Assembly (NCBI GenBank): GCA_039028615.1
Contig: JBCCHT010000015.1
Location: 64,001 to 128,000, forward strand
DNA from: Myxococcota bacterium
GTDB taxonomy: Bacteria; Myxococcota_A; Polyangia; Nannocystales; Nannocystaceae
Length of the DNA stretch: 64,000 nucleotides
Direction: 5' to 3'
The notes beneath the pieces are model-generated. The model did no database searches, was not told where the DNA came from, and saw nothing but the letters and a program-made list of their open reading frames with translations. The position numbers and the translations under genes are program-made. Numbering within the stretch: the stretch's first letter is position 1; the number at the start of each line of letters is the position of its first letter. Below, in pieces: positions 5,510-60,168 of this stretch.

Positions 5510-6553
5510 CTATGGCATAGGAGGCAGGCCCGTCGCATCCAACCACGGCGCGGCCATGTTCAGGCACCCAAAGTCGAGGGGGAGCTGGCCCAGCATCGTC
5601 AGCGAACCGTCGTCCTCGATGCGCCTCAGCTCGTTGTCCGAGGCGCACGCGTACACCCGGCCCGTGGAGCCGTGGTACTCGAACGCGACCTGAGCAAAGT
5701 CGAACGCGAGCGCCTGGACGAGCGACGGAGCGCCCGTCGTCGTGTCGATCTCGTAGAGCGAGTCGGAGGCGATGTCGAGGGCGAGGAGCTGAGACGTATC
5801 CTCGTTCAAGGTCAATCCCACTGCGTTCCAGTCTTCGCCGATCGGACCGACGACCGTGCCGACACCGGTGTCTGCGTCGATGCGCAAGACCGAATCCGTA
5901 TCGGCATCGATACCGAACAGATCGTTGCCTTCGTCGGGAGCAATCGCGTAGACGTCGGCGAAACCGAAGTCTCCGACCAGCGTCGCTTCGCACGATGGCA
6001 GCGCCAGCTCCCATAGCTCGTCGCCCGTGGAAAAGAACAGACGATCGTCGCGAGAGAAGGTGGAGGAGAAGATGAAGGTGTCGATCGCGCCCCCGGTCGC
6101 AGCGTTCGTGACCGTGCAAAAGTCGAGAGCGGCCGCGGTTTCGATGTCGAACTGGACGACGTGGGTGTTGCCCATGCTGTTGTCGAGGGCCACCATCCAC
6201 GGCGGGGCCATCGGCTCGGGTTCTCCCGAGCTGGAGTCCGAGCTGGAGTCCGAGCTGGTGTCGTCGGTCATGTCCCCAGACGTGGTTCCCGACCCGGTGT
6301 CGCCATCGGAGCCGCTGCTTTCGTCTACGGTCGATGCCGTGGTGTCCAGATCCACCTCGCCGCTGGAGCTCGCCGCATCGGTGGTTCCGGGGGTCGGGAT
6401 GGGGTCATCCGTCGAGCTGGATCCGGGGGACCCACTGGTACTGCTGCCATCGTCGTTCTGAGGCGTGGAAGGATCGGTGCAGGCCAGTAGCGTGGAGGAG
6501 ACCGCGACGAGAAAGCACAATGCTCCGTGGCGGGTGAGGTGTGAAGTCTGCAT
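5510..6553 (-). CDS. Lipoprotein with S/T/D-rich linker and putative beta-propeller domain
   Basis: LLAC lipobox; low-complexity linker; repeated blade-like motifs (LRIDADTG, LYEIDTTTG); start trimmed to ATG 6553. Confidence 0.7.
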   Translation of the reverse strand: MQTSHLTRHGALCFLVAVSSTLLACTDPSTPQNDDGSSTSGSPGSSSTDDPIPTPGTTDAASSSGEVDLDTTASTVDESSGSDGDTGSGTTSGDMTDDTSSDSSSDSSSGEPEPMAPPWMVALDNSMGNTHVVQFDIETAAALDFCTVTNAATGGAIDTFIFSSTFSRDDRLFFSTGDELWELALPSCEATLVGDFGFADVYAIAPDEGNDLFGIDADTDSVLRIDADTGVGTVVGPIGEDWNAVGLTLNEDTSQLLALDIASDSLYEIDTTTGAPSLVQALAFDFAQVAFEYHGSTGRVYACASDNELRRIEDDGSLTMLGQLPLDFGCLNMAAPWLDATGLPPMP

Positions 6554-48226: not shown

Positions 48227-48565
48227 TCCAATCTCCACAACCGACGAGCACGGCACGCATGGGGCTTTGGGCCCCCGTCGGGGCGAACCGCCCACAACCG
48301 AATTCGGCTACCCGTGCAGTATGCCCATCACCCACGGGGGGCGTGGTCATGGGCTGGCACAATGGATGAAAAAAACGAGACTGCTTCGAAGTTCCAACAG
48401 GGTTGATGCGAGCGGCGTAGCTACCCGCACCATCACTACGGCTCGAAGGTTGGAGCATGCGAAATTGGCATGAGTGGACGGGAGCGGTCGTGTGGGGGGT
48501 GTATGCCCCGGTGGCGCTATGAAGGAACGGTCAACGAACGAGTGGCGGAGTCGGGGAGTCGTCGA

Positions 48566-49744
48566 TCACGGCGGAGGCTCGCCGTTCATGTACGCTCGAA
48601 TCTGGTTCACCTGGTTCGTACCCCACTCCGTCTTTCCATCATTACTGTTGAGCGCCCACAAAAACGCCATCGGGTAGTTGCTGCGTTGTTCGAGGAACTC
48701 GAGCCGATGGTACAGGTAACGGTTTCGATTGCCCTCGGTGGGCCGGCAGTCGCCCCAGGCTTCGCGGGGGTCGGGAACGTCCGTCGCAAACTCGCCGATC
48801 ATGCACGGGCGGAAGGGCAGGCGGTCATAGGCCGGCAGGCGGGAGGGCAACGAGTACCCGGGGTAGTGGTGAAACTGGTGCCAGTACTGGCCGCGTCGCG
48901 ACGCAGTTTGCAGCAGCCTTCTCAGTGGGGCGCTGATCCAGCTCGGGTTGTGGCTCAAAAAACCGATGGTCGAGCGAAAGTTCAGGCCGTGAATGCGATA
49001 GAGCGCCGCCCGGATGAAGCGAGACATGTCGTCGGGGCTGACGTGATCATGCCTGATTGCCCAGTCGGGCTCGTTGATGACTTCCCACGCGAAGATCGCA
49101 TCGCGGACTCTTCGAGAGGCATGCAACAGCGGAGTCAGGGTTGCGTCCAAGAACGGGTTGATGAAGCGCCCGCTGCCGTCGGGGCCGAAGATCAACTCAC
49201 CGCGACCTTGGCTGGTGGTGCCATCGCCTCTTTCATTGAGTTCCTTGAACCACTCGAAGCTGATGAGCGAGGGGATGATCTTCATCTCGGCGCTGATGCA
49301 CGCTTGGCACAGGCCGACGAAGTCTTCGATGAAATCGGCGTGGAGAGGGGGCGGCGCCACGCCTGGCTTCAACACGAGGCGACGTGTCAGGAGGCCCGTG
49401 GCCGTGGCGTGGGGATGCCAGTCGACCTGCGGATAGTTGATCCCGTCGGCGAGGATCCAAAACCGGATGACGGAGATCCCGAGTTGTCGCAGTTGTTGAA
49501 GCTTGGCGTGCACCGACGACCAATCGCGCGGCACGGGATGACGGGTCGCGGACCACCAGGGGGTCGGCCCGACGCCGAAGTCCCATCCGCAGCGACTGCT
49601 CGTCACAGATCCACCGCCCGAGACGGCCCGAGTGCCATTCCCCGTCCAGGGGTAGTTCACGCCGAGGACGAAGCGGGGACACACCGAGTTGCTGGTGCCG
49701 TCACCGTCGTCCGAAGGCGCGACATTGCAAACTTCGTCAACCAT
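48566..49744 (-). CDS. Clan GH-A (GH5-like) glycoside hydrolase, no signal peptide
   Basis: GVNYPW, IRFWILADG, AWEVINEPD (acid/base), QFHHY, IGEF (nucleophile). Confidence 0.8.
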   Translation of the reverse strand: MVDEVCNVAPSDDGDGTSNSVCPRFVLGVNYPWTGNGTRAVSGGGSVTSSRCGWDFGVGPTPWWSATRHPVPRDWSSVHAKLQQLRQLGISVIRFWILADGINYPQVDWHPHATATGLLTRRLVLKPGVAPPPLHADFIEDFVGLCQACISAEMKIIPSLISFEWFKELNERGDGTTSQGRGELIFGPDGSGRFINPFLDATLTPLLHASRRVRDAIFAWEVINEPDWAIRHDHVSPDDMSRFIRAALYRIHGLNFRSTIGFLSHNPSWISAPLRRLLQTASRRGQYWHQFHHYPGYSLPSRLPAYDRLPFRPCMIGEFATDVPDPREAWGDCRPTEGNRNRYLYHRLEFLEQRSNYPMAFLWALNSNDGKTEWGTNQVNQIRAYMNGEPPP

Positions 49745-49761
49745 CGACGTTCTCCCGAGCC

Positions 49762-50436
49762 TCAGACCCCATGCGCACTCTCCAGTTCGGCCACCGTCTC
49801 GTCATCGAGCTCGCCGGTCTCCGAAAGCTCGCGGTCCCTCTGAAACCGCTGCAGCGCCGCGCTGATCTCCTCGGGTTCCATGTCGTCGTAGGGCCGCAGG
49901 TGGTAGCCGAGGTTTCGCAGTCGCGACATGGCGCCCTTGGGTTTCGTGGCGGGGTCGAGATGTCCGATCCGCAGGCGCATCGTCTGGCCATCCCCCTGCG
50001 GGTCACCCCGTAGCCACAGCGTCAGCTCGCCCGCGTCGACACCCGCCGGGACCCAGTGCTCGAGCATGCCGCCCTCCGGGATGGTGCCTTCGTACTCGGC
50101 GGGGTCGACCCGCAGGCGATAGCGCTTGCCTTCGATGCTGATGGGTCCGTCGTCGCGGAGCTTCAGCCGCAGCATGGTCGCCGGAGTCCCCAGTACGAAG
50201 TGGTGGACCTTGCCGGTCGCGCACCGATGCTCTTGCCCCCGATGCCGAACGACGCCGTCGCTGGTCTCCGCCAGCTCGACTTGGTCGTCGGGGTTGAGCA
50301 CCAGAGGATTGGGGCGGTCCTCCTTCAGCTGCGCATTCCCGGACTCCTCTCGCACGGCCCGCCAATCCGCCCGCCCGTGGGCAAGTGCGACGGACTGCAA
50401 GGTCTCGCCCTCCCGGACTTGGTGACTAGCTCCCAT
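49762..50436 (-). CDS. LysM-like + TTR-like + peptidoglycan-binding (PG_binding_1) protein
   Basis: HQVREGETLQSVA...NPLVLNP.D; C-terminal RLRNLGY...ALQRFQRDRELSETGELDDET. Confidence 0.85.
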   Translation of the reverse strand: MGASHQVREGETLQSVALAHGRADWRAVREESGNAQLKEDRPNPLVLNPDDQVELAETSDGVVRHRGQEHRCATGKVHHFVLGTPATMLRLKLRDDGPISIEGKRYRLRVDPAEYEGTIPEGGMLEHWVPAGVDAGELTLWLRGDPQGDGQTMRLRIGHLDPATKPKGAMSRLRNLGYHLRPYDDMEPEEISAALQRFQRDRELSETGELDDETVAELESAHGV

Positions 50437-50442
50437 GCTCGT

Positions 50443-51042
50443 CTACGCTCCAGTCTGCTGCCATGGGTCCTGCATCTCTTCCAGCGGCACATCGGGAAAA
50501 CGAATGCGAGTGATGCCCGCGGTGATGTCGTCGTGTCGTGCCCGACCCGCGGAATCGGTGGTGCCGGTAATTCGCTCGCCGTCGGACAGGGTCAGCTCGT
50601 AGGTCTCGCCGCTTCGGGGGGTGCCGTCGCGGTGGGTGAGCACGAGCTCGATCCAGTCCAGGGGTTGCTCGGCGGGTGTGTCGTCGATCGGCTCGGTCGA
50701 CTCCACCCGCGGGAGGGTCGCGTGGCGGGCATACGGCGCCTCGAACAAGCGCAGCGGCGAGATGCCGCGGAACGCCTCGTCGCGAATCCATGCGATCCAC
50801 CCCCGCTCGTCGTCGGCATCGGGGCAGGGGTGGGTCTTCGGGAGCAGCTGCCGCAGGTGTGACGCGAACCGGCGAGGCTTGTGGCGAAAGGCGGCCTCGA
50901 GGATCTCGATGGCCTCGAACGCCTCGTCGATGCGCGTCCAGGCGGAAGGAGCATCGACGGTGGAAGGCCGCGGGGCGAGCACGAAGCGGCGCCCGAGGTG
51001 CTGGAACGAGAAGGCGTCGCGCCCGACTAGGGATTGGAACAC
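50443..51042 (-). CDS. Hypothetical protein with C-terminal transthyretin/prealbumin-like domain
   Basis: WIELVL...GTP...YELTLSDG...GTTDSAGRA...IRFP; GGAGG RBS upstream of GTG. Confidence 0.65.
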   Translation of the reverse strand: MFQSLVGRDAFSFQHLGRRFVLAPRPSTVDAPSAWTRIDEAFEAIEILEAAFRHKPRRFASHLRQLLPKTHPCPDADDERGWIAWIRDEAFRGISPLRLFEAPYARHATLPRVESTEPIDDTPAEQPLDWIELVLTHRDGTPRSGETYELTLSDGERITGTTDSAGRARHDDITAGITRIRFPDVPLEEMQDPWQQTGA

Positions 51043-51226
51043 TCGGCATCCTCCCCGTGGCCTGGACGCCGACCCACCGATGCACTTCGCACTGCGTGAA
51101 GACTATGCCACGGCGCGGAAAAAACGCACAATGCAGGACGGGCGCAAACGCCCCTGGAGACCGCTTTTCGAGCGTCTGTGGCGATCGGTGATCGAAACTC
51201 GAGCGACGCGGTCTACCCCAGAGCCC

Positions 51227-52201
51227 ATGAGCAACGTCGACGACCCCTTCGTGCACGAGCGCGGCTTCCTGACCCTGGGGGGCAGTGAGACCTACCTGTT
51301 GTTTCTCCAGGGCTTCGCGCTGCAGGACTTCTGTGCCTTCGAGTTGTTCGACGATGCACAGGCCTTCGCCGACTTCGAGCAGGGGTTCCTGCGGCCCACG
51401 GCGGACGCGGCCCTCGAGCACGGGATGGGCTTGGTGCTCGACTGCCTGGTGTGGCGCGCGAGTCCGGACTGGGTCGTGCGCCGCGGTCATGCGCTCGCGG
51501 AGCTGGGTGCGATCAACACCAACGCCGTGGCGCGCATGCGTGACTTCGCCGAGCGATGGCGATCCGATCGGGGCGAAGCCGCCGCCGACCTGCCGATACG
51601 ACTCATCGGCGAGATCGGTCCGCGGGGCGACGGGTATGCCCTCGATCCGGGGGCGCGCCTCGATGTCGAGCAGGCGGCGGCGTATCACCGCCCGCAGATC
51701 GAAGCGCTGGCGTCGGCGGGAGTGCATGCCATCGGGGCGCTGACCATGACCAGCGTGGAAGAGGCGGTGGGTATCGTCCGAACGGCGGCCGAGCTCGGCA
51801 TGCCCGTATTCGCGTCGCCGACCGTGGAGACCGACGGCACGCTGCCCGACGGATCGACGCTCGGCGAGTTCATCGAGCGTGTGGACGAGGCCACCGATGC
51901 GGCGCCGTTGATGTACCAGGTCAACTGCGCGCACCCGACCCACTTGGCGCCGACGCTCCACGCTGCCAGCGGCGTTCGACCGCGGTGGCTGTCGCGGATT
52001 CAGGCATTTCGTGCGAACGCGTCGAGGCTCAGTCACGCGGAACTCGACGAGTCGGAGACGCTCGATGCGGGCGATGCCGTGGACCTGGCCGCCCGGGTGG
52101 CCAAGATGCGCGAGGACTTCGATCTACGGATCGTCGGCGGATGTTGCGGCACGGATGCGACGCACATGGCCGCCATCGCCTCGGCGTGCCACGGGGGCTG
52201 A
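51227..52201 (+). CDS. Homocysteine S-methyltransferase family protein
   Basis: IGPRGDGY, VNCAHP and GGCCGT zinc ligands; start trimmed from the long ORF. Confidence 0.9.
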   Translation: MSNVDDPFVHERGFLTLGGSETYLLFLQGFALQDFCAFELFDDAQAFADFEQGFLRPTADAALEHGMGLVLDCLVWRASPDWVVRRGHALAELGAINTNAVARMRDFAERWRSDRGEAAADLPIRLIGEIGPRGDGYALDPGARLDVEQAAAYHRPQIEALASAGVHAIGALTMTSVEEAVGIVRTAAELGMPVFASPTVETDGTLPDGSTLGEFIERVDEATDAAPLMYQVNCAHPTHLAPTLHAASGVRPRWLSRIQAFRANASRLSHAELDESETLDAGDAVDLAARVAKMREDFDLRIVGGCCGTDATHMAAIASACHGG

Positions 52202-52219
52202 GCACGCACGGGTCGAGCC

Positions 52220-52657
52220 TCAGCGGAGCGCGTCCCGGACCTGCATGAGGATGCGCCCCAGCATGTTCTTGCCGTGCCCGTCGCCGCCGTCGCCCCAGTA
52301 GTCGTCGTTGGCGGTGTGCTCCACGAGCTTGGCCTCGCCCGTGCTCAGCAGAAGCGCCCGCAGGTCGGCGTGCTGGCGGAACTTGGCCTCCACCGCCGTT
52401 CGCATCACGGAGACCTTCACCGACTCCCAGTCGCGTCGGAGTTTTCGCTTGCGGTCGCGCCCGCGCCGAGCCGCCTCCATCGGGGTCTTGGCCTTGCGGA
52501 CGTCGGCGCGGTCGCGCTCCGACTCGAATTTCTGCGCCTGGAAGTAGTGCTCCGAGGTTGGCCAGGTCTTCTTGCCCACCTTGATGGGAAACTGCGCGAA
52601 GTTGGACAGCTCGCCGTAGTCGTCGGCGACGCTGTAGAAGCGGATGACCTCGGTCAT
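52220..52657 (-). CDS. ybiA: NADAR family N-glycosidase (YbiA-like)
   Basis: LSNF, WPTSEHYFQAQKF, DWESVK..VM, KFRQH, LLLSTG, DDYWG, GKNMLGRILM. Confidence 0.95.
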   Translation of the reverse strand: MTEVIRFYSVADDYGELSNFAQFPIKVGKKTWPTSEHYFQAQKFESERDRADVRKAKTPMEAARRGRDRKRKLRRDWESVKVSVMRTAVEAKFRQHADLRALLLSTGEAKLVEHTANDDYWGDGGDGHGKNMLGRILMQVRDALR

Positions 52658-54636
52658 GCGGTCGTCCCCGAGGGCAGCAGCAGGTCGCTGCGGCTGATGG
52701 TGTAGGTCAGGCGCGGGTAGACGAAGTCCACCTCCCGGTTCTCGCGACCCCGCAGCCGATGGAATTCGCGGCGCTCGTCCTCGGTGGCCAGGGTCAGCGG
52801 CTCACCCGAGTCGAATGCCATGCCGTCGTCGTGCGGGCGCACGAACGTCGCCGACGTGCGGAAGGTGAGACCCAGCCATTGGTTGTCGGGCGGGTTGTGG
52901 GACCGGTCGAGCACGATCTTGTGCTTGAACCTCCGGTTGGTGTCGAGGGAGAACACCACCACGTGGTTGTGGAGCAGCGGCACCTGGAAGGTCTCGCCAT
53001 CCTCGGGATCTTTGGAGGTGATGACCAAGGCGCGTGGCGGAGTCGCCTGCGCCGGGTCTCGGTAGCAGGAGAACACCGCGATCGACGAGCCCGGAGCGAG
53101 GTCCTGGGCCTGGTCGGAGTGCATGCCCATCTTGGCGTAGGCGTTGCCGTAGAGCTCGAACAGGGCGTTGTTCAGGCGCGAGCGCAGCGACGCGAAGTCC
53201 TCGATCTGGCGGGCGAGACGGGCGTGTGCGGGCGAGAAACACTGCGCCGCGATGCCGTACTTGGTGGTGGTGCGCACGATGGGCACGCTGCGGTGGTCGG
53301 GCTCGACGAGGACTGCACCTTGCCGACCCTTGGTCACGTCCTCGAGGCGAACCGAGGCGAGCAGGGCATCGAAGGGGTTGCCGTCCAGCGGGAGCTCGTA
53401 GCGCCGAAACTCGTCCCTCGCGTGATATCGAGGCTGCACGTAGTCGCCCTTGTTCATGCTGAAGGGAAATCGCTGGCCGTAGTCCACGACGGCGTCGGTG
53501 CGGTTTTCCTCGGCGTAGACCGTGCGCAGAGCCGCCATCCCTTCGGTGGTCGGGGGCGCCAGCTCGATGCGAACCTCGCCGTCGTCGATGAACGTCGTGC
53601 CGGCTTCGTGCACTGCGAAGCGGTTCGAACAGCGGACGACGTAGCCCAGGCGCGTGGGGAGCATCGCGGCATCGAGCTGCGAGGGCCGGACCTCGTGGGT
53701 GTACAGCCGGTTGGTGGACAGCGGCATGAGGAACACCGAGCCGGGATACAAGGTGACGGAAAACTGCGGCGGCAGGGTGCAGCCGGACTGCTGCGCCACC
53801 GTGGCCTTGAGTCGAAACTGGAGCCGGGTCAGCCCGCTGGTGCGCTTGCGCCCGTAGTCGAAGGGGTCGGCCGCCAGGGGCTCGAGGTGGTCGAGGCCGT
53901 CGTAGAACGTGCAAAACGCCATGATCGCGTCTGGGGGCATGTCCTTGGTCTTGTCCGCGTGTCCCTTGATCTTCGCCTTGGTCTGCTTGGTCGTCTCCGT
54001 GGCGGGGGTGTTGCAGTAGATCTGCGCCAGCACGTGATTGAGGGGCGCCGCCTCGGCGAACACCCGGGCGGCCTCCTGGTTGAGGGCGTCGACGATGTGT
54101 CGGTCGTGAGCACGGAAGTTCTCCGTCGGCCCGGAGAAGTTGCTGGAGCAGCGGAGCAGCCGAAAATGGAGCGCATCGCCGCGGGGCTTCACCGGAGTCA
54201 GGTAGATGCCCGTGCGGTGAGCCTTGCCCGGCTTGGTGGACTCGGTCAGCGACTGAAACTCGTGCTCCTGTTGGATGCGTCGAAAGTAGTTGCGGCGGGG
54301 ATCGAAGAAGCGGCGATAGAGCACGCCCATCCCGTGCACGCGTATGGGTACGCGGCCAGGGTCGATCGTCGGCCAAGGGAGGCCAGACTCACCGTCGTGG
54401 TGCGCGGGGTCTTCGATGATCGAAACGCGATCGGCCACGGCGAGGTCTCGTTCGAGCCCGCGAGCCAACGCCGAGTCACCGCACAGGTACACCGTCTTGC
54501 CGGAGACGTCGGGGCACGGCATGCCGGCGTCGAGGGGGACCACGGTGCCGCAGAAGTCCTGAGCCAGCAGAGAGTCGCGAACCTCACCCAGTACGAGCAG
54601 GATGTTCGTCGATTCGTCGATGCGGGCCTCGGTCAT
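52654..54636 (-). CDS. Tandem AlkB-like 2OG-Fe(II) dioxygenase (two domains)
   Basis: Domain 1 NHVLAQIY...HADK...YTHEV...RLGYVVR; domain 2 NNALFELY...HSDQ...FKHKI...WLGLTFR; stop overlaps the NADAR start (ATGA). Confidence 0.75.
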   Translation of the reverse strand: MTEARIDESTNILLVLGEVRDSLLAQDFCGTVVPLDAGMPCPDVSGKTVYLCGDSALARGLERDLAVADRVSIIEDPAHHDGESGLPWPTIDPGRVPIRVHGMGVLYRRFFDPRRNYFRRIQQEHEFQSLTESTKPGKAHRTGIYLTPVKPRGDALHFRLLRCSSNFSGPTENFRAHDRHIVDALNQEAARVFAEAAPLNHVLAQIYCNTPATETTKQTKAKIKGHADKTKDMPPDAIMAFCTFYDGLDHLEPLAADPFDYGRKRTSGLTRLQFRLKATVAQQSGCTLPPQFSVTLYPGSVFLMPLSTNRLYTHEVRPSQLDAAMLPTRLGYVVRCSNRFAVHEAGTTFIDDGEVRIELAPPTTEGMAALRTVYAEENRTDAVVDYGQRFPFSMNKGDYVQPRYHARDEFRRYELPLDGNPFDALLASVRLEDVTKGRQGAVLVEPDHRSVPIVRTTTKYGIAAQCFSPAHARLARQIEDFASLRSRLNNALFELYGNAYAKMGMHSDQAQDLAPGSSIAVFSCYRDPAQATPPRALVITSKDPEDGETFQVPLLHNHVVVFSLDTNRRFKHKIVLDRSHNPPDNQWLGLTFRTSATFVRPHDDGMAFDSGEPLTLATEDERREFHRLRGRENREVDFVYPRLTYTISRSDLLLPSGTTA

Positions 54637-54917
54637 GATTGTGGTTCCTCGAACGAGCAGTATACGCGAGGGGAGGAAGTGACTGTTCCTCCCCAAACGA
54701 GGCCTGAGGGGGCCATGGCTGCCTTCATGGGTGGGCGTTGATGCTTTGCGTTGGTTTTACAATTGGGTCGATCGGCGCGGTCTTTGGCGGTTTGGGTGCT
54801 CCGCCTGCGAGGCTGGATGCCGAATTTTCATCCGTGTGCTCGTCGACGACGACTCGAAGCAGTGACACCACGCCCGATCGCGAGCTGCTTCGCGATCGCG
54901 GATGGTACCCATGAACG

Positions 54918-55472
54918 ATGGGTAAGCATGACATCGGCCGCGGGGTGTTCCTTCGGCAGCTAGCGGGGTTCGCATCACTGGCATCGGTCGCACCGACCGT
55001 GATCGGCTGTGGCGACGACGAGGGATCCGACACCACGGACGGTGGGGGGACGGGAACGACGACGACGACCGAGCCCGGCAGCAGCGGCAACGGAGGCGGC
55101 GGCGAGAGCGGCACGACGGCGGGGGCGGGTGGCTCGAGCAGCGGCGGAGCGCCCGGCACGACCACGGGTGAGGACGGGTCCACGGGCTCGGCCGAGGACA
55201 CGACGGCGGGGAGCGACGAAGGGGCCCAGGCCTGTCCGAACGAGGTCGTCGCCAGCATCGTCAGCGACCCGGAGCACTCGCTGGTGATCCCGCCCGCCGA
55301 CATCGAAGCCGGGGTGGAGCAGAGCTACGACATCCAGGGGATCGCCGGTCACCCCCACACCGTGGTCGTGACCGCCGCCCACTTCGAGCAGCTTCGCGCG
55401 GGCAAGTCGGTGACGCTGACCTCGAGCGTCGATGCCAACCACGATCACGACGACGTCGTGCTCATGTGCTGA
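54918..55472 (+). CDS. His-motif lipoprotein, putative metal-binding
   Basis: VIGC lipobox; G/T/S linker; C-domain HSL...GHPH...HDH and terminal Cys. Confidence 0.7.
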   Translation: MGKHDIGRGVFLRQLAGFASLASVAPTVIGCGDDEGSDTTDGGGTGTTTTTEPGSSGNGGGGESGTTAGAGGSSSGGAPGTTTGEDGSTGSAEDTTAGSDEGAQACPNEVVASIVSDPEHSLVIPPADIEAGVEQSYDIQGIAGHPHTVVVTAAHFEQLRAGKSVTLTSSVDANHDHDDVVLMC

Positions 55473-55584
55473 AGCCCCGTAACGGCCATCCAAGGCGCTC
55501 TACGACGCCATGGGAGGGCTCGATCCCGCCTCGGCTTCGTGGGTATCATTGCGTCGTGCAGGTCCATCGCACCGGGAAGCGCCC

Positions 55585-57186
55585 GTGACGAGCACCGATG
55601 AGGCGCTCCCGACGGGTGACTCCACCACGATGAGCCCGCCCAACGAGGGCCACGTACCGCCCGCGAGGACGATGCTCGTGCTCACCGTGCTCGCGCACCC
55701 GAGCGCCGAGCGGGTGGGAGACTGGACGCGAGCCACCGCGGAGCTGTCGAGGTCCACCCCCGACTTCGAATCTCCGACGGGTGCCGCTCCGCGACCGCTG
55801 GGGGATCGCTACCTGAGCCGCAAGCCGGTCGCCATCGTCCGCGATGCTCACGGTGGCGTCTCGATCAGCCCCGGCGAGGGCAAGGCGTGGGTGGAGGTGA
55901 ACGCCGAGCGCATCACCCAGCGCACCCGCTTCGGCGTCGAGCAGCTGCGACGGGGAGTGGTACTGTGCCTGCGCGGGCGGGTGACGCTGCTGCTGCACTA
56001 TGTGGCGCCGCGTCAGGCGGGCGAGGGTATCGACGACCTCGGGCTCGTCGGTACGAGTGCCGAGATGACGGCCGTACGGGAGCAGATCACGGCGGCATCC
56101 CTCGTCGACTCGCCCGTACTCGTCACCGGAGAGTCGGGCGCGGGCAAGCAACTGGTCGCACGGGCGATCCACCGGGCGGGGCCGCGGTCGGACAAGCACT
56201 ACGCCACCATCAACATGGCGACGCTGTCTGCGACCCATGCCGCCTCGGAGCTGTTCGGCCACACATCGGGAGCCTTCGAGGGAGCCGAACGGGCGCACGA
56301 CGGTGGTTTCGTTCGGGCCGACGGCGGGACGCTGCTGGTGGACGAGGTCTCACAGACCCCGCTGGAGACCCAGGCGCAGCTCCTTCGCGCGCTCGAGACG
56401 GGCGCCGTTCGGCCCCTGGGGGCGCCCGGAGATCGTCGGGTGGATGTCCGGGTGATCGTGTCCACCGATGTCGACCTCGAGCAGAGGGTCGACGATGGCT
56501 CGTTTCGCCGGGCGTTGCTGCATCGGGTGGCGGGGTTTCAGATTCGCGTGCCCGCGCTCCGACAGCGGCGGGACGACATCGGCTCGCTGGTGCTCCACTT
56601 TGCGCGCACGGAGCTGACCAAGCTGGGCCTGACCCGCTACATCGACGAGCCTGATCCCGAGCGCGCGTGGCTGTCGGCTACCGTCGTCGCTCGCCTGGCC
56701 ATGCACGACTGGCCGGGGAACGTGCGAGAGCTGGGCAATGTGGTGCGCCAGCTGGTGGTGAGCGGTCGCGACCAGCCGACGATCCGGGGCGGCGAGGAAC
56801 TCGATGCCCTGCTCGGGGCGTCCACGGCCGCACCGAGCCGCGGGGAGCCCTCGGGCGAGCCCATCGACGTCGGTGGGTATGCCCAGGGGAGCCGGGGAGG
56901 GATTCGCCATCCCACCGAGGTCAGCGAGGACGAACTCGTGGCTGCGATGCGGGCGAACCAGTGGCGCCTGGCCCCGACCGCGCGGGCGCTGAACCTGTCG
57001 CGGACCTCGCTGTATCGGCTCATCGAGCAGTCGAATCGGATCCGCCGGGCGACGACCATCACCGCCGACGAGGCCACCGCGGTGCTGGAGGCCTCGGGGG
57101 GCAACGTGGTCGCGGCGGCCGAGAAGCTCGAGGTCTCCACGCGGGCGCTGACCTTGCGGCTGCGCTCGCTCGACCTACTTCCGTGA
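55585..57186 (+). CDS. Sigma-54 enhancer-binding-type AAA+ regulator with FHA-like N-terminus and tandem HTH
   Basis: GESGAGK, SELFGH.SGAFEGA, LLVDEV, WPGNVREL; two Fis-like HTH segments; start uncertain. Confidence 0.9.
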   Translation: MTSTDEALPTGDSTTMSPPNEGHVPPARTMLVLTVLAHPSAERVGDWTRATAELSRSTPDFESPTGAAPRPLGDRYLSRKPVAIVRDAHGGVSISPGEGKAWVEVNAERITQRTRFGVEQLRRGVVLCLRGRVTLLLHYVAPRQAGEGIDDLGLVGTSAEMTAVREQITAASLVDSPVLVTGESGAGKQLVARAIHRAGPRSDKHYATINMATLSATHAASELFGHTSGAFEGAERAHDGGFVRADGGTLLVDEVSQTPLETQAQLLRALETGAVRPLGAPGDRRVDVRVIVSTDVDLEQRVDDGSFRRALLHRVAGFQIRVPALRQRRDDIGSLVLHFARTELTKLGLTRYIDEPDPERAWLSATVVARLAMHDWPGNVRELGNVVRQLVVSGRDQPTIRGGEELDALLGASTAAPSRGEPSGEPIDVGGYAQGSRGGIRHPTEVSEDELVAAMRANQWRLAPTARALNLSRTSLYRLIEQSNRIRRATTITADEATAVLEASGGNVVAAAEKLEVSTRALTLRLRSLDLLP

Positions 57187-60168
57187 TTTCTCCCAGTCGT
57201 CGAGCTGGCGGAGGAACTCCTCCATGTTCTCTTTCTCGAATCCGGTGCGGGCTTCGTCGGCGAGGCTCTGCGCACGCGCCCGGTCACCGCCGCTGCCCCA
57301 CAACGCCTTGGCCAGGATGAAGCATGCGAGGCCGAGCCCGCCCGGCGATGCCTTGCCCCCGCGGCGAAGGGCGACCGCACGCTCGGCGAGCGGCAACGCC
57401 TCGGCGAAGTGCTCTTGCACGATGGCCGCTTCGGCTGCGCCCACCAGGGGGTAGGCGAGGCTGGGGTGGTCGGGGCCCAGCGCGGCCTCTCGAATCTTCA
57501 GCTCGCGTTCGTGCAGGGCTTGGGCCCCGGCGTAGTCTTCGAGGTGGTAGCGCACCATGGCCAGGCTGCCCATGGTGGCGCCCACGGCCACATGCTTTGC
57601 CCCGAGCTTCTTCTTGCGGATCTCGAGCGCACGCTCGAGTGAGGCCTGGGCTTTGGGGAGATCGGGCAGCTCGCTGTACACGATGCCGAGGTTGTGGAGC
57701 GAAGCGGCCAGGTCGGGATGTTCGGGGCCCAGGACTTCTTCTTGGGTGCGGATCGCCCGGTTCAGCAGGTCGCGCGCGCCCTCCATGTCGCCCGTGCGGA
57801 TGTGGACGCCCGCGAGGTTGATCAGGTTGCCCGCGACCTTGGGGTGCCGTGAGCCCAGGGCCTCTTCGAGAATGGGAATGGCCCGCTCGAGCAATGCCCG
57901 GCTCTCCTCGTATTCCCCGAGGTCGGTGAGCACCATCGCCATGTCCCCCATGGTGATTGCGAACTCGGGATCGTTGGCGCCGAGCTCCTTCTCGCGCATC
58001 ACCAGCGCGCGTTCGAAGAGCGCCCGTGCCTCCTGTAGATCGCCCGCCGCCCAACGCACGCTGCCGCGGTTGCGCAGACCATCGATTCGGCGCGGGCCTC
58101 CGAGGTCAGGCATCATCGCCCGCACCGCCTCGGCATGCTGGGACCAACGCTCGGCGTCGGCATGACGGCGCTGACGAATGCCGACGGTGATGACGAGGAT
58201 CTCCGCCGTGTCTGCGGCCAGCTCGAGCGCGCCGACCTTGACCGCCTCGAAGTAGGTCTGCTCCAGCGCGATCTCGGCTTCGGCGTAGTCGCCGTTGGCG
58301 TTGATCAGGCCCCCGACCACCGCCCGGCTCTGCGCGACGAGGGGGGTCCACCCGATGGACTCCGCGCTGGCCAATGCCGGTTTGGCGACCTCGAGCCCGT
58401 CTTGGTAGGCGCCGACGCGGCGCAGCGCGCTCGCATGGGCGAGCTGGCGGCGAACCTCTTCGATCTGGGACGTCTTGCCGGAAGGAGGCGGAGGCAGCCG
58501 GCCGAGTCGATCGGCGTCTCCGCACTTGTGCGGCGAGGGCAATCCCGAGGCGGCACTCACCGCTCGCTGCACTGCGCCCGCGTCGCCCCGGCCGAGGGCA
58601 GTCGCCAGCGCATCGAGGCCCATGCGCTGCTCGTCGAGGCACGAGACGGCAAGAGCGTAGGTCTCCGAGTCCAAGGTCTCGTCGACGTTGGCGCTGCGGC
58701 ACACGCCCGTGCGGACCTGCGCCCAGTTGTCGGCGTAGGTGTCCAGCCACGGCAGCGCCTTGTCGGCGGCTTCTTCGGCGTTGGCCTGCCCGCCCTCCAG
58801 AAAACTGTCTCGCAGCGTCGCGGAGCGCTGGGAGTCCCAGACCTCTTCGATGCTCGCGCCGTCGCTGTCGCAGGCCGCGGCGGTGCGGGTGCGATCGAGC
58901 CACTGGACGCCGAGCACGGCTGCTCCGGCGATGGCGACGAACCCGACGGCGACCAGCGTCTTCATGCGTCGCGCTCGCGACGAGCCGCGGCGCAGCAGGC
59001 CGAGCAGCGACTCCATGTCCGCGTAGCGCTGCGCGGGATCGAGTGCCAGCCCCCGTTCGCAGGCGCGGCGAAGCCACGGCGCGACCCGGGCATTGGACGG
59101 TGGCTCGACGATCGATCCCTCCATGGTCGCGAGCAGGCGGCTGGCGGGCGTATCCCCGCCGAAGGGGCGGGTGCCGTAGAGCCCTTGCCACAGGGTCACG
59201 CAGAAGCTGAAGACGTCGGTGCGGGCATCGATGGAGCCGCCCTTGAGCTGCTCCGGCGCCATATAGCCCGGGGTCCCCAGGATCGCCCCGTCGCGGGTCA
59301 GCGCCGCGAAGGTGTCCACGGAGGGATCGCCGACGTCGATGCGCGTCTCGGTATCCTGGGAGTGCGGCTCACGAGCGAGGCCGAAGTCGACCACGCGCAC
59401 TCGGCCTTCATCGTCGACCATCACGTTGTCGGGCTTGAAATCGCGATGGACGATGCCTTTGTCGTGTGCGGCCGCGAGCCCTTCGCCCGCGTCGATGAGC
59501 ACGTGCAGCACTTCGCTGGTGGTGCGCTCTCGCTGTTCCAGCCACGCGCGCAGCGTCTGCCCCTCGACGAACTCCATCGCCAGGTACACCGCGTCACCGA
59601 ACAGGCCCACGTCGTACACACCCACCACGTTGGGATGGGAGAGCCGGGCGAGGGCCTGGGCTTCACGGAGCAGCCGCGATCGGTGCACGCCGCCGGGCTC
59701 GTCCTTGCCATCGCGCAGGAGCTTGAGGGCCACCCGGCGATTGAGCTCCGGATCGTAGGCGCGGTAGACGACGCCCATGCCCCCCGCGCCGATGCGGTCG
59801 ACGGTGACGTAGCGCCCGACGTGGGCGCCCGGGGGGAGCTGATCGGTGGTGTCCTGCTCGGCGCTTCGCTCCACGACGATCTCGGTGGGGAGCTCGCCCG
59901 TCTCCTCGTCGTCTGGTTCGTCGCCGGTCACCGGTGGGGTCTGGGCCCGATTCTCGCTTCGAATCGCGCCCCGGATGCCGTCACCCGCCGAACTCTCCAG
60001 CGTGTCGCCTTTGGAGGCCCATTGCAGGGGAGCGCCGCCGGCCGGTGACGGGGGCGCCCCGCTCGAGCCGGGGCCACGCAGTCGCTCGACGAGCCCGAGC
60101 AGCCGCTCCACGACGGAGCGATGCCGATGGGGTTGTTCGGGTTGGCGATTCGTCGGGGGCTCGACCAT
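57175..60168 (-). CDS. Ser/Thr protein kinase with TM segment and TPR repeats
   Basis: IGAGGMGVV, VALK, HRDFKPDN, DFGLA, GTPGYMAPE; TM segment; 42-aa LGPEHP-type repeats. Confidence 0.95.
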   Translation of the reverse strand: MVEPPTNRQPEQPHRHRSVVERLLGLVERLRGPGSSGAPPSPAGGAPLQWASKGDTLESSAGDGIRGAIRSENRAQTPPVTGDEPDDEETGELPTEIVVERSAEQDTTDQLPPGAHVGRYVTVDRIGAGGMGVVYRAYDPELNRRVALKLLRDGKDEPGGVHRSRLLREAQALARLSHPNVVGVYDVGLFGDAVYLAMEFVEGQTLRAWLEQRERTTSEVLHVLIDAGEGLAAAHDKGIVHRDFKPDNVMVDDEGRVRVVDFGLAREPHSQDTETRIDVGDPSVDTFAALTRDGAILGTPGYMAPEQLKGGSIDARTDVFSFCVTLWQGLYGTRPFGGDTPASRLLATMEGSIVEPPSNARVAPWLRRACERGLALDPAQRYADMESLLGLLRRGSSRARRMKTLVAVGFVAIAGAAVLGVQWLDRTRTAAACDSDGASIEEVWDSQRSATLRDSFLEGGQANAEEAADKALPWLDTYADNWAQVRTGVCRSANVDETLDSETYALAVSCLDEQRMGLDALATALGRGDAGAVQRAVSAASGLPSPHKCGDADRLGRLPPPPSGKTSQIEEVRRQLAHASALRRVGAYQDGLEVAKPALASAESIGWTPLVAQSRAVVGGLINANGDYAEAEIALEQTYFEAVKVGALELAADTAEILVITVGIRQRRHADAERWSQHAEAVRAMMPDLGGPRRIDGLRNRGSVRWAAGDLQEARALFERALVMREKELGANDPEFAITMGDMAMVLTDLGEYEESRALLERAIPILEEALGSRHPKVAGNLINLAGVHIRTGDMEGARDLLNRAIRTQEEVLGPEHPDLAASLHNLGIVYSELPDLPKAQASLERALEIRKKKLGAKHVAVGATMGSLAMVRYHLEDYAGAQALHERELKIREAALGPDHPSLAYPLVGAAEAAIVQEHFAEALPLAERAVALRRGGKASPGGLGLACFILAKALWGSGGDRARAQSLADEARTGFEKENMEEFLRQLDDWEKSRK

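Follow-up and report, generated by a model that had tools for sequence, protein, structure and literature searches.

Gene Layout of the Locus

The analysis was performed on a 64,000-nucleotide stretch of contig JBCCHT010000015.1 (assembly GCA_039028615.1, positions 64,001 to 128,000) from a Myxococcota bacterium of the Nannocystaceae, referred to here as the window. Its subject is a gene for a protein of two AlkB-like domains, A and B, which is followed on the same strand by a NADAR gene (Table 1). An initial annotation, made from the sequence alone, had described the two genes as a duplicated AlkB-like dioxygenase coupled to a NADAR hydrolase, in a candidate module for the reversal of base adducts. 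The follow-up analysis showed that A and B make up an AlkB-clade module that is uncharacterised and obligately paired and in which the second active site is rebuilt, and that the NADAR link, which prompted the finding, does not generalise beyond the locus of this genome.

The overlap of the dioxygenase stop codon with the NADAR start codon was confirmed, and makes co-translation of the two genes likely in this one genome. A TTG codon 60 nucleotides 5' of the ATG is an alternative start that would give a protein of 680 amino acids; the homologue alignments start at residues 1-3 of the ATG form.

Table 1. Features of the locus, in window coordinates.
Feature	Position	Strand	Basis
A-B dioxygenase gene, 660 amino acids, two predicted AlkB-fold domains	52654..54636	-	Open reading frame (ORF), ATG 54636 to stop 52654
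N-terminal alpha/beta domain of A, residues 1-104, in A only	54325..54636	-	Predicted model, structure comparison
Domain A core, residues 105-405, lid and double-stranded beta-helix	53422..54324	-	Alignment, model
Domain A sites: H226, D228, H314 (metal triad); Q205, Y207, R329, R335 (co-substrate)	within 53422..54324	-	
Domain A predicted substrate-pocket residues: K229, K231, R141, R162	within 53422..54324	-	Alignment, 351 rows
HAD motif of A (H226-A-D228)	53953..53961	-	
Domain B, residues 406-660, predicted same fold as A; H506, D508, H572, R593 kept	52657..53421	-	Alignment, model
HSD motif of B (H506-S-D508)	53113..53121	-	
E494 codon, aligned with Asn of ABH2 N159-R-Y161	53155..53157	-	
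W587 codon, first position of RxxxxxR	52876..52878	-	
ATGA overlap, dioxygenase stop/NADAR start	52654..52657	-	Junction GC-ATGA-CC, 4 nucleotides shared
YbiA-type NADAR, 145 amino acids, probably a local neighbour outside the conserved unit	52220..52657	-	
Homocysteine S-methyltransferase-family gene, convergent, just past NADAR, provisional start	51173..52201	+	Pfam

Duplication and Predicted Fold

The internal duplication that had been read in the protein was borne out. The local alignment of one half with the other scored 76, compared with 34.2 +/- 5.3 for shuffled sequences (maximum 55; none of 1000 as high), with 24% identity over 209 columns, and the family profiles of A and B aligned with a probability of 99.1 (E 5.8e-19, 250 columns). 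All of the motifs reported earlier were present in their places, including the HAD and HSD motifs, TNR at residues 308 and 566, EENR at 376, RENR at 631, RLGYVVR at 329 and WLGLTFR at 587. The halves are unequal, as A carries about 100 extra N-terminal residues. Against the Pfam AlkB family PF13532, B scored 33.3 bits, which is above the cut-off of 31.2, and A scored 23.1 bits, which is below it.

The AlphaFold2 model of the 660-amino acid A-B fusion had a mean predicted local distance difference test (pLDDT) of 91.0 and a predicted template modelling score (pTM) of 0.92. In a structure search of 48,161 representative chains, the top matches were ALKBH2 and ALKBH3 (Z 15.9, root-mean-square deviation (rmsd) 2.8, 184 and 176 residues aligned), followed by FTO (Z 14.7), AlkB (13.9) and then ALKBH6, 5 and 7. 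AlkB-type chains ranked above all other 2-oxoglutarate oxygenases, and Foldseek was concordant. A natural fusion in the reverse order, B-A, was modelled with a pLDDT of 91.7 and a pTM of 0.75. Its A domain aligned with residues 55-258 of the ABH2 chain (Z 17.7, rmsd 3.1, 190 aligned), and its B domain with residues 18-213 of the AlkB chain (Z 16.3, rmsd 3.0, 169 aligned), ranges that include the lid region in both domains. Over the two models, the matches of A to ALKBH2/3 (Z 15.9-17.7) span chain residues 53-258. A and B are thus both predicted to have the AlkB fold with its double-stranded beta-helix, consistent with the AlkB identity first assigned to them. The N-terminal domain of A has a generic Rossmann- or receiver-like shape; its template modelling scores (TM) of 0.56-0.60 to unrelated alpha/beta domains are too low for a family name. 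A complex prediction for a viral A and B pair, run without alignments, returned a score of 0.00 and counts neither way.

Active Sites of A and B

In ABH2, according to the accessible part of PMC12795828, H171, D173 and H236 bind iron, N159, Y161, R248, T252 and R254 hold 2-oxoglutarate, F124 stacks on the flipped base, and Y122 and E175 read the base. In domain A, the metal triad H226, D228 and H314 was present in 347, 348 and 347 of the 351 aligned rows, and the co-substrate residues Q205, Y207, R329 and R335 in 348, 347, 347 and 347, respectively, with Gln replacing Asn. Counting also K229, K231, R141 and R162 of the predicted substrate pocket, each key residue was found in 97-99% of the rows, the remainder being mostly gaps. 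Domain A therefore has the predicted fold, the lid, the metal triad and the 2-oxoglutarate-site residues by which an AlkB-type Fe(II)/2-oxoglutarate dioxygenase is recognised.

Domain B has the predicted AlkB fold and the HxD...H residues, and lacks the 2-oxoglutarate-binding Asn and the first Arg. The metal ligands H506, D508 and H572 were present in 236, 236 and 233 of 237 rows, respectively, and Y496, T591 and R593 are also kept. The tryptophan noticed earlier at the first arginine position of RxxxxxR in the second half is W587, which was found in 233 of the 237 rows (the other four being gaps). A second difference in the co-substrate site is Glu494, which corresponds to Gln205 in A and was present in 236 of the 237 rows. 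Both E494 and W587 were present in 120 of 120 further stand-alone B proteins. Because Glu494 and Trp587 would fill the co-substrate pocket, B would be expected to bind a metal but not 2-oxoglutarate in the usual way. The pocket is rebuilt in the same way in more than 350 sequences with the metal ligands kept, which points to undescribed chemistry.

The lid loops were mapped by aligning sequences via a bacterial homologue of the YTYS type, with the Trp/Phe that comes next as anchor; the mapping does not come from coordinates. On this mapping, lid loop 2 carries an invariant Arg (R162 in A, R455 in B) at the position of ABH2 Y122, and S164 (A) or T457 (B) at the stacking position of F124. After the HxD motif, A has Lys-Thr-Lys (K229-T230-K231) and B has Q509-A510, in place of the acidic E175 of ABH2. 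Neither domain has the stacking aromatic or the acidic base reader of the ALKBH2/AlkB-type pocket for 1-methyladenine (m1A) and 3-methylcytosine (m3C); judged from the aligned residues, the pockets of both are unlike those of m1A/m3C dealkylases, and that of A appears basic.

Distribution and Architectures of the A and B Pair

A word search recovered 2194 relatives among 7997 candidates. The 120 relatives listed (query included) were 55-100% identical and all were fused A-B proteins; their sources include Nannocystis, Pseudonocardia, cyanobacteria and the dinoflagellates Polarella and Biecheleria, and one cluster contains Rhodomonas. A profile search yielded 1536 clusters at 50% identity; 152 distant proteins from it, which lack genomic context, comprised 109 with A only, 28 A-B, 13 B-A and 2 with B only. 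No longer fusions (1156-3300 amino acids) were seen among 7984 candidates, which is weak evidence. At least 586 genome loci exist; of the 80 that scored best, 28 were fused and 52 were split into overlapping genes, 41 of these by 17 nucleotides. As this set was ranked by score, unranked samples searched with separate A and B profiles were added. A was present in 4 of 301 genomes of the phylum, with B adjacent in all four. A full A was found in 20 of 251 Streptomyces-genus genomes, and the same 20 had an adjacent B; B alone occurred in none and an A fragment in one. Thirteen of 72 family relatives had a strong B, and in all 13 A stood beside it. A and B were found in none of five genomes of the same genus, and neither was the NADAR.

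In the viral database IMG/VR, 11 contigs carried A, of which nine carried B on the opposite strand: seven tail to tail and two with one or two genes between, with two of the contigs identical at the locus. Of the remaining two, one was cut by the contig end and one had no B within 8 kb. The scan from the B side returned those nine contigs only. Five of the 11 were labelled as giant-virus metagenome-assembled genomes, and five more were 155-439 kb long. The pair therefore occurs in four architectures (fused A-B, fused B-A, overlapping operon, and convergent genes in giant viruses), and it is linked across bacteria, protists (dinoflagellates and cryptophytes) and giant viruses at 40-60% identity.

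In the tree, A and B each formed one clade with support by the SH-aLRT branch test (99 and 95), and the two clades were sisters (95). An isochorismatase-fused AlkB-like domain was placed next to them, and the YTYS-type bacterial AlkB proteins fell outside. The trees were made by a quick method with SH-aLRT support only, and the A/B tree carried a long-branch warning. They separated virus-like from cellular sequences and do not fix the donor of any transfer; the 'virus-like' and 'eukaryote' labels of some of the proteins are guesses, and in one tree two fused loci (L012 and L013) wrongly carry the label of split ones. As read from these sequences, A and B appear to descend from one old duplication, after which neither fusion (in either order) nor fission nor inversion broke their linkage.

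Among the individual members, A was broken by a frame interruption in Nannocystis exedens (L026). A bin labelled Bifidobacterium breve (L036) contained a fused gene that groups with the myxobacterial ones, and is likely a case of mis-binning.

The NADAR Gene

The second gene encodes, as had been proposed, a NADAR, and one of the YbiA type. It matched PF08719 (140.1 bits, E 1e-40), TIGR02464 (153.4 versus a cut-off of 73.7) and the YbiA structure 2B3W (E 2e-60, over residues 4-144). It scored below the cut-off of the anti-phage NADAR model NF053876 (106.6 versus 240), and alone matched the PADLOC model PDC-M42C (E 9e-14).

The linkage of this gene to A and B was analysed in 209 related loci, comprising 11 viral, 80 genome (8-kb flanks), 17 phylum and family, 21 Streptomyces-genus and 80 metagenome loci, with some genomes occurring in two of the sets. 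NADAR stood next to A or B in none of the 209; in 175 of these the sequence continued for 450 bases or more beyond B. Rarity of NADAR beside the homologues is what the initial annotation had named as a refutation of its proposal, and this outcome was observed. The search used both NADAR proteins of this genome and recovered the NADAR of the window as well as its 29%-identical paralogue, which shows that it was sensitive enough. NADAR was likewise absent at the nearest relatives with context, namely the tree sister L012 and the 73%-identical L206 (with 4 kb of downstream sequence). Conversely, YbiA-type NADARs were present in 27 of 72 family relatives, and at 29 such loci of the family neither A nor B lay within 1.5 kb of NADAR; the neighbours of these 29 genes include no repair or riboflavin partner either. 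Of the 13 relatives that have A-B, seven carry this NADAR too, in every case far from the pair or on another contig. The NADAR beside A-B is therefore likely a local recruit.

According to the accessible text of PMC11125620 and PMC12945103, G and C can be freed of ADP-ribose in vitro by YbiA-type NADARs, and certain YbiA-type proteins of myxobacteria are antitoxins of a downstream YarT. A DarT1-NADAR or YbiA-YarT toxin-antitoxin system was considered for the locus and rejected, as the operon contains no ADP-ribosyltransferase: the dioxygenase gene lies upstream, and downstream is the convergent methyltransferase gene, which is so close to NADAR (19 nucleotides) that no toxin gene fits in between. 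In agreement with the first description of the locus, no DarT or riboflavin gene was found among the seven flanking ORFs scanned; the GTP cyclohydrolase II matches of this genome are on other contigs. A genome-wide search for DarT gave no PF14487 match, but the control genomes were equally without a match. Tandem NADAR genes were observed in three family relatives (L159, L162 and L163).

Genomic Neighbourhood

The A-B and NADAR genes lie in a variable region of the genome. No syntenic counterpart of window positions 48500-57200 was present in any of the five same-genus genomes, in which only a sigma-54 activator domain and short pieces matched. The G+C content of the locus is that of the window, and a search for insertion footprints, promoters and terminators around it found repeats and matches at chance level only. 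Three co-directional ORFs at 48566-51042 (minus strand) encode an unknown protein of 199 amino acids, a 224-amino acid protein with a peptidoglycan-binding domain, and a 392-amino acid protein that resembles a glycoside hydrolase and has no Pfam match.

A short gene (about 175 amino acids) similar to endonuclease V abuts the A-B pair in 2 of the 209 loci. In one (L033:3116-3640, plus strand) it lies upstream of the pair, and in the other (L236:about 5925-6460, plus strand) it lies downstream with an ATGA overlap, as for NADAR here. The genome of the window has a 49%-identical copy of this endonuclease V on another contig (C3:398180-398671). Of the adduct-reversing module that was first proposed, the coupling to NADAR was lost, and the looser idea of repair genes as neighbours survives in this endonuclease V, found once in the same slot.

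In 14 of 259 loci, several of them duplicates, GGTGATATCYTGCCNCCATG is common to myxobacterial A-B genes and sits right at the start codon (L019, L021, L023, L034, L189 and L201 among them). The element resembles an extended -10 box with a leaderless start, and the window does not contain it.

Proposed Function and Alternatives

The reading we put first, to which we assign close to an even chance, is that A and B are a two-part enzyme whose target is a nucleotide of DNA or RNA that has been damaged or modified, with NADAR as a likely local recruit. A would hydroxylate the adduct as an ordinary Fe(II)/2-oxoglutarate oxygenase, and B would carry out a second, 2-oxoglutarate-independent step on the product of A or on a sister lesion. 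The lesion would probably not be cationic m1A or m3C, the targets of AlkB and ALKBH2, since small or basic residues stand where those enzymes have the stacking aromatic and the acidic reader; an adduct that is anionic or rich in carbonyl groups would fit better. A nucleic-acid substrate is suggested by the placement in the AlkB clade, the retention of the lid with its invariant Arg, the retention of the pair in giant viruses, and the independent recruitment of lesion-removing neighbours.

Several observations weigh against this reading. A small-molecule substrate would explain the loss of the stacking aromatic just as well, and in the sister clade the AlkB-like domain is joined to a hydrolase of the isochorismatase family. 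The median isoelectric point of 6.4 makes both domains near neutral, not strongly basic. Among 80 upstream and 77 downstream genes there was no recurring functional partner beyond the synteny of close Streptomyces, and an SOS-type or RecA-type box was not enriched in 151 upstream regions. The pairing has exceptions, namely a viral A without B in 8 kb (L009:8001-8999), an A fragment alone (G585:C1) and a B fragment with an internal stop, also alone (G306:C31). Support for a fixed A-B interface also varies among the models, the pTM being 0.92 for the A-B model, 0.75 for the B-A model and 0.76 for an Atlas model.

The strongest alternative, which we consider somewhat unlikely, is that A and B process a free small molecule in two steps (the molecule being a modified base, nucleoside, nucleotide or other anionic metabolite), in the service of catabolism, salvage or detoxification and not of polymer repair. 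It would account for the absence of an aromatic at the ABH2 F124 position, the Arg at the Y122 position and the Lys after HxD in A, as well as for the near-neutral isoelectric point, the absence of an SOS box and the fusion of the sister clade to what is an isochorismatase-family amidohydrolase. Catabolic genes are scattered among the neighbours, including urease subunits (two loci), an amidohydrolase, an amidase and a xanthine-dehydrogenase-type protein, but these are single cases in variable Streptomyces regions. Moreover, the closest solved structures are all nucleic-acid enzymes, and no conserved transporter, regulator or pathway gene lies nearby, as a catabolic cluster would predict.

A more specific form of the two-part nucleic-acid enzyme is, taken as a whole, unlikely. 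It would be the first obligately two-part AlkB system, in which A hydroxylates an anionic nucleic-acid adduct and B, an AlkB-fold metal enzyme without 2-oxoglutarate, finishes the reaction. Glu494 would serve B as a built-in carboxylate ligand and Trp587 would close the pocket. Arg162, Lys229 and Lys231 would read the adduct, which might be a carboxyalkyl or a phosphoribosyl remnant, for instance, and the downstream slot would take interchangeable lesion-removing enzymes, NADAR here and the short endonuclease V elsewhere.

It is distinctly unlikely that B is non-catalytic and, as a reader or scaffold that binds metal, offers the substrate to A within a heterodimer. The two co-substrate ligands lost in B would be consistent with such a role, as would the strict one-to-one pairing, the fusion in either order and the confident inter-domain packing of the A-B model. 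This packing is, however, less sure in the B-A model, and H506, D508, H572 and R593 are kept in essentially every sequence, which would be improbable for a dead domain. A pseudo-enzyme parallel to B would be the second beta-helix domain of OGFOD1/Tpa1, an inactive partner.

We regard as very improbable the proposal that A and B write or erase a base modification in conflict between virus and host or bacterium and phage, outside damage repair. The patchy spread (4/301, 20/251 and none of five in its own genus) is typical of exchanged genes, the pair is present in giant-virus contigs, and the accessible portion of PMC7824862 proposes mark-resetting for sporadic phage AlkB proteins; a restriction-modification methylase lies beside one locus and a type I restriction subunit beside another. 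Yet no methylase, glycosyltransferase or defence gene recurs among the neighbours. NCBIfam and PADLOC have no family for the dioxygenase, and five flanking ORFs match nothing in PADLOC. The dioxygenase had no match in 50,697 phage records, and in the plasmid collection it matched three records only, all multi-megabase actinomycete replicons. The role in defence or toxin immunity that had been suggested for the locus left no sign in these searches: the dioxygenase has no PADLOC or phage match, and no neighbours are conserved.

Least probable of all, and largely refuted as a conserved system, is the dedicated dioxygenase-NADAR system of the initial annotation: it could draw on the ATGA overlap, on the absence of both genes from all five same-genus genomes (so that they may have arrived together) and on the removal of ADP-ribose by YbiA-type NADARs in vitro (accessible text of PMC11125620 and PMC12945103), but it is contradicted by the absence of NADAR at all 209 related loci, of A or B near all 29 family NADAR loci, and of any close linkage in the relatives that have both.

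Should B prove to be 2-oxoglutarate-independent and the lesion to be of a new class, the pair would represent new repair or de-modification chemistry common to bacteria, dinoflagellates, cryptophytes and giant viruses. Testing is made easy by the bacterial form in which A and B are separate proteins (about 405 and 256 amino acids), as it occurs in cultured Streptomyces and cyanobacteria.

Comparison with Known Systems

Full-text literature searches, to which most subscription papers were out of reach, found no paper on the A and B pair. Neither isochorismatase nor NADAR nor a member locus tag was found in one supplement of PMC4738411, and AlkB is not mentioned in PMC9503650. The accessible part of PMC10598087 discusses PF13532 proteins of nucleocytoplasmic large DNA viruses and does not mention the pair. 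Databases label the A and B proteins 'AlkB' or 'hypothetical', which hides their difference from ordinary AlkB.

The NADAR of the window resembles E. coli YbiA in its match to 2B3W and in TIGR02464 membership, and differs from the myxobacterial YbiA-YarT and DarT1-NADAR pairs in having no ADP-ribosyltransferase after it.

The isochorismatase-fused AlkB-like domain of fungi and some myxobacteria (PF00857 and PF13532) shares with A and B the NHALIQ.Y, HADKT and TNR..H segments and the EN..D tail. It matched the B profile with an E of 1.8e-16, gave TM values of 0.57-0.58 and was sister to A and B in the tree, subject to the long-branch warning. It differs in that a cysteine hydrolase is joined to a single AlkB-like domain, whose Gln/Tyr and RxxxxxR are canonical. 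Such fusions were observed in myxobacterial relatives (L098 and L118-L121) as the bacterial counterpart of the fungal proteins, and in L098 and L118 the fusion gene is adjoined by what was read as a glutathione S-transferase-like gene.

Among other oxygenases, FTO was the third-best structural match of the A-B model, reached Z 16.2 in the B-A comparison, where the match extended into the C-terminal part, and was the best named language-model neighbour of A (score 0.95). Searches of the PDB gave no sequence match to FTO, which consists of one catalytic domain and a helical domain at the C terminus. OGFOD1/Tpa1, also listed among the matches of the structure searches, has two beta-helix domains in one chain, as in A-B, but belongs to the prolyl-hydroxylase clade; whole-chain superposition failed (rmsd 23 Å), and A and B both keep the metal triad. 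The algal TET homologue CMD1 is, according to the accessible part of PMC11831678, a His-His-Asp nucleic-acid dioxygenase that uses ascorbate in place of 2-oxoglutarate, and may serve as a precedent for the proposed co-substrate switch of B. CMD1 is a single-domain member of the TET/JBP clade, and its likeness to B is one of analogy only.

To our knowledge, characterised AlkB enzymes are single catalytic domains that consume 2-oxoglutarate. With ALKBH2, ALKBH3 and AlkB (PF13532), both A and B share the lid and double-stranded beta-helix (Z 14-18) and the HxD...H triad, and A also shares the full N/Q-x-Y and RxxxxxR motifs; B resembles ABH2 in sequence around HxD (E 2.4e-4). The identity is 12-21%, and the proteins described here carry in addition an alpha/beta domain at the N terminus and, at the C terminus, a helix with an EN..Y..S.N/S..D tail. 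Unlike ABH2, they have Ser/Thr at F124, Arg at Y122, and Lys-Thr or Gln-Ala after HxD in place of acidic residues. Above all, A and B differ from these enzymes as an obligate pair of paralogues, with Glu and Trp in the co-substrate site of B.

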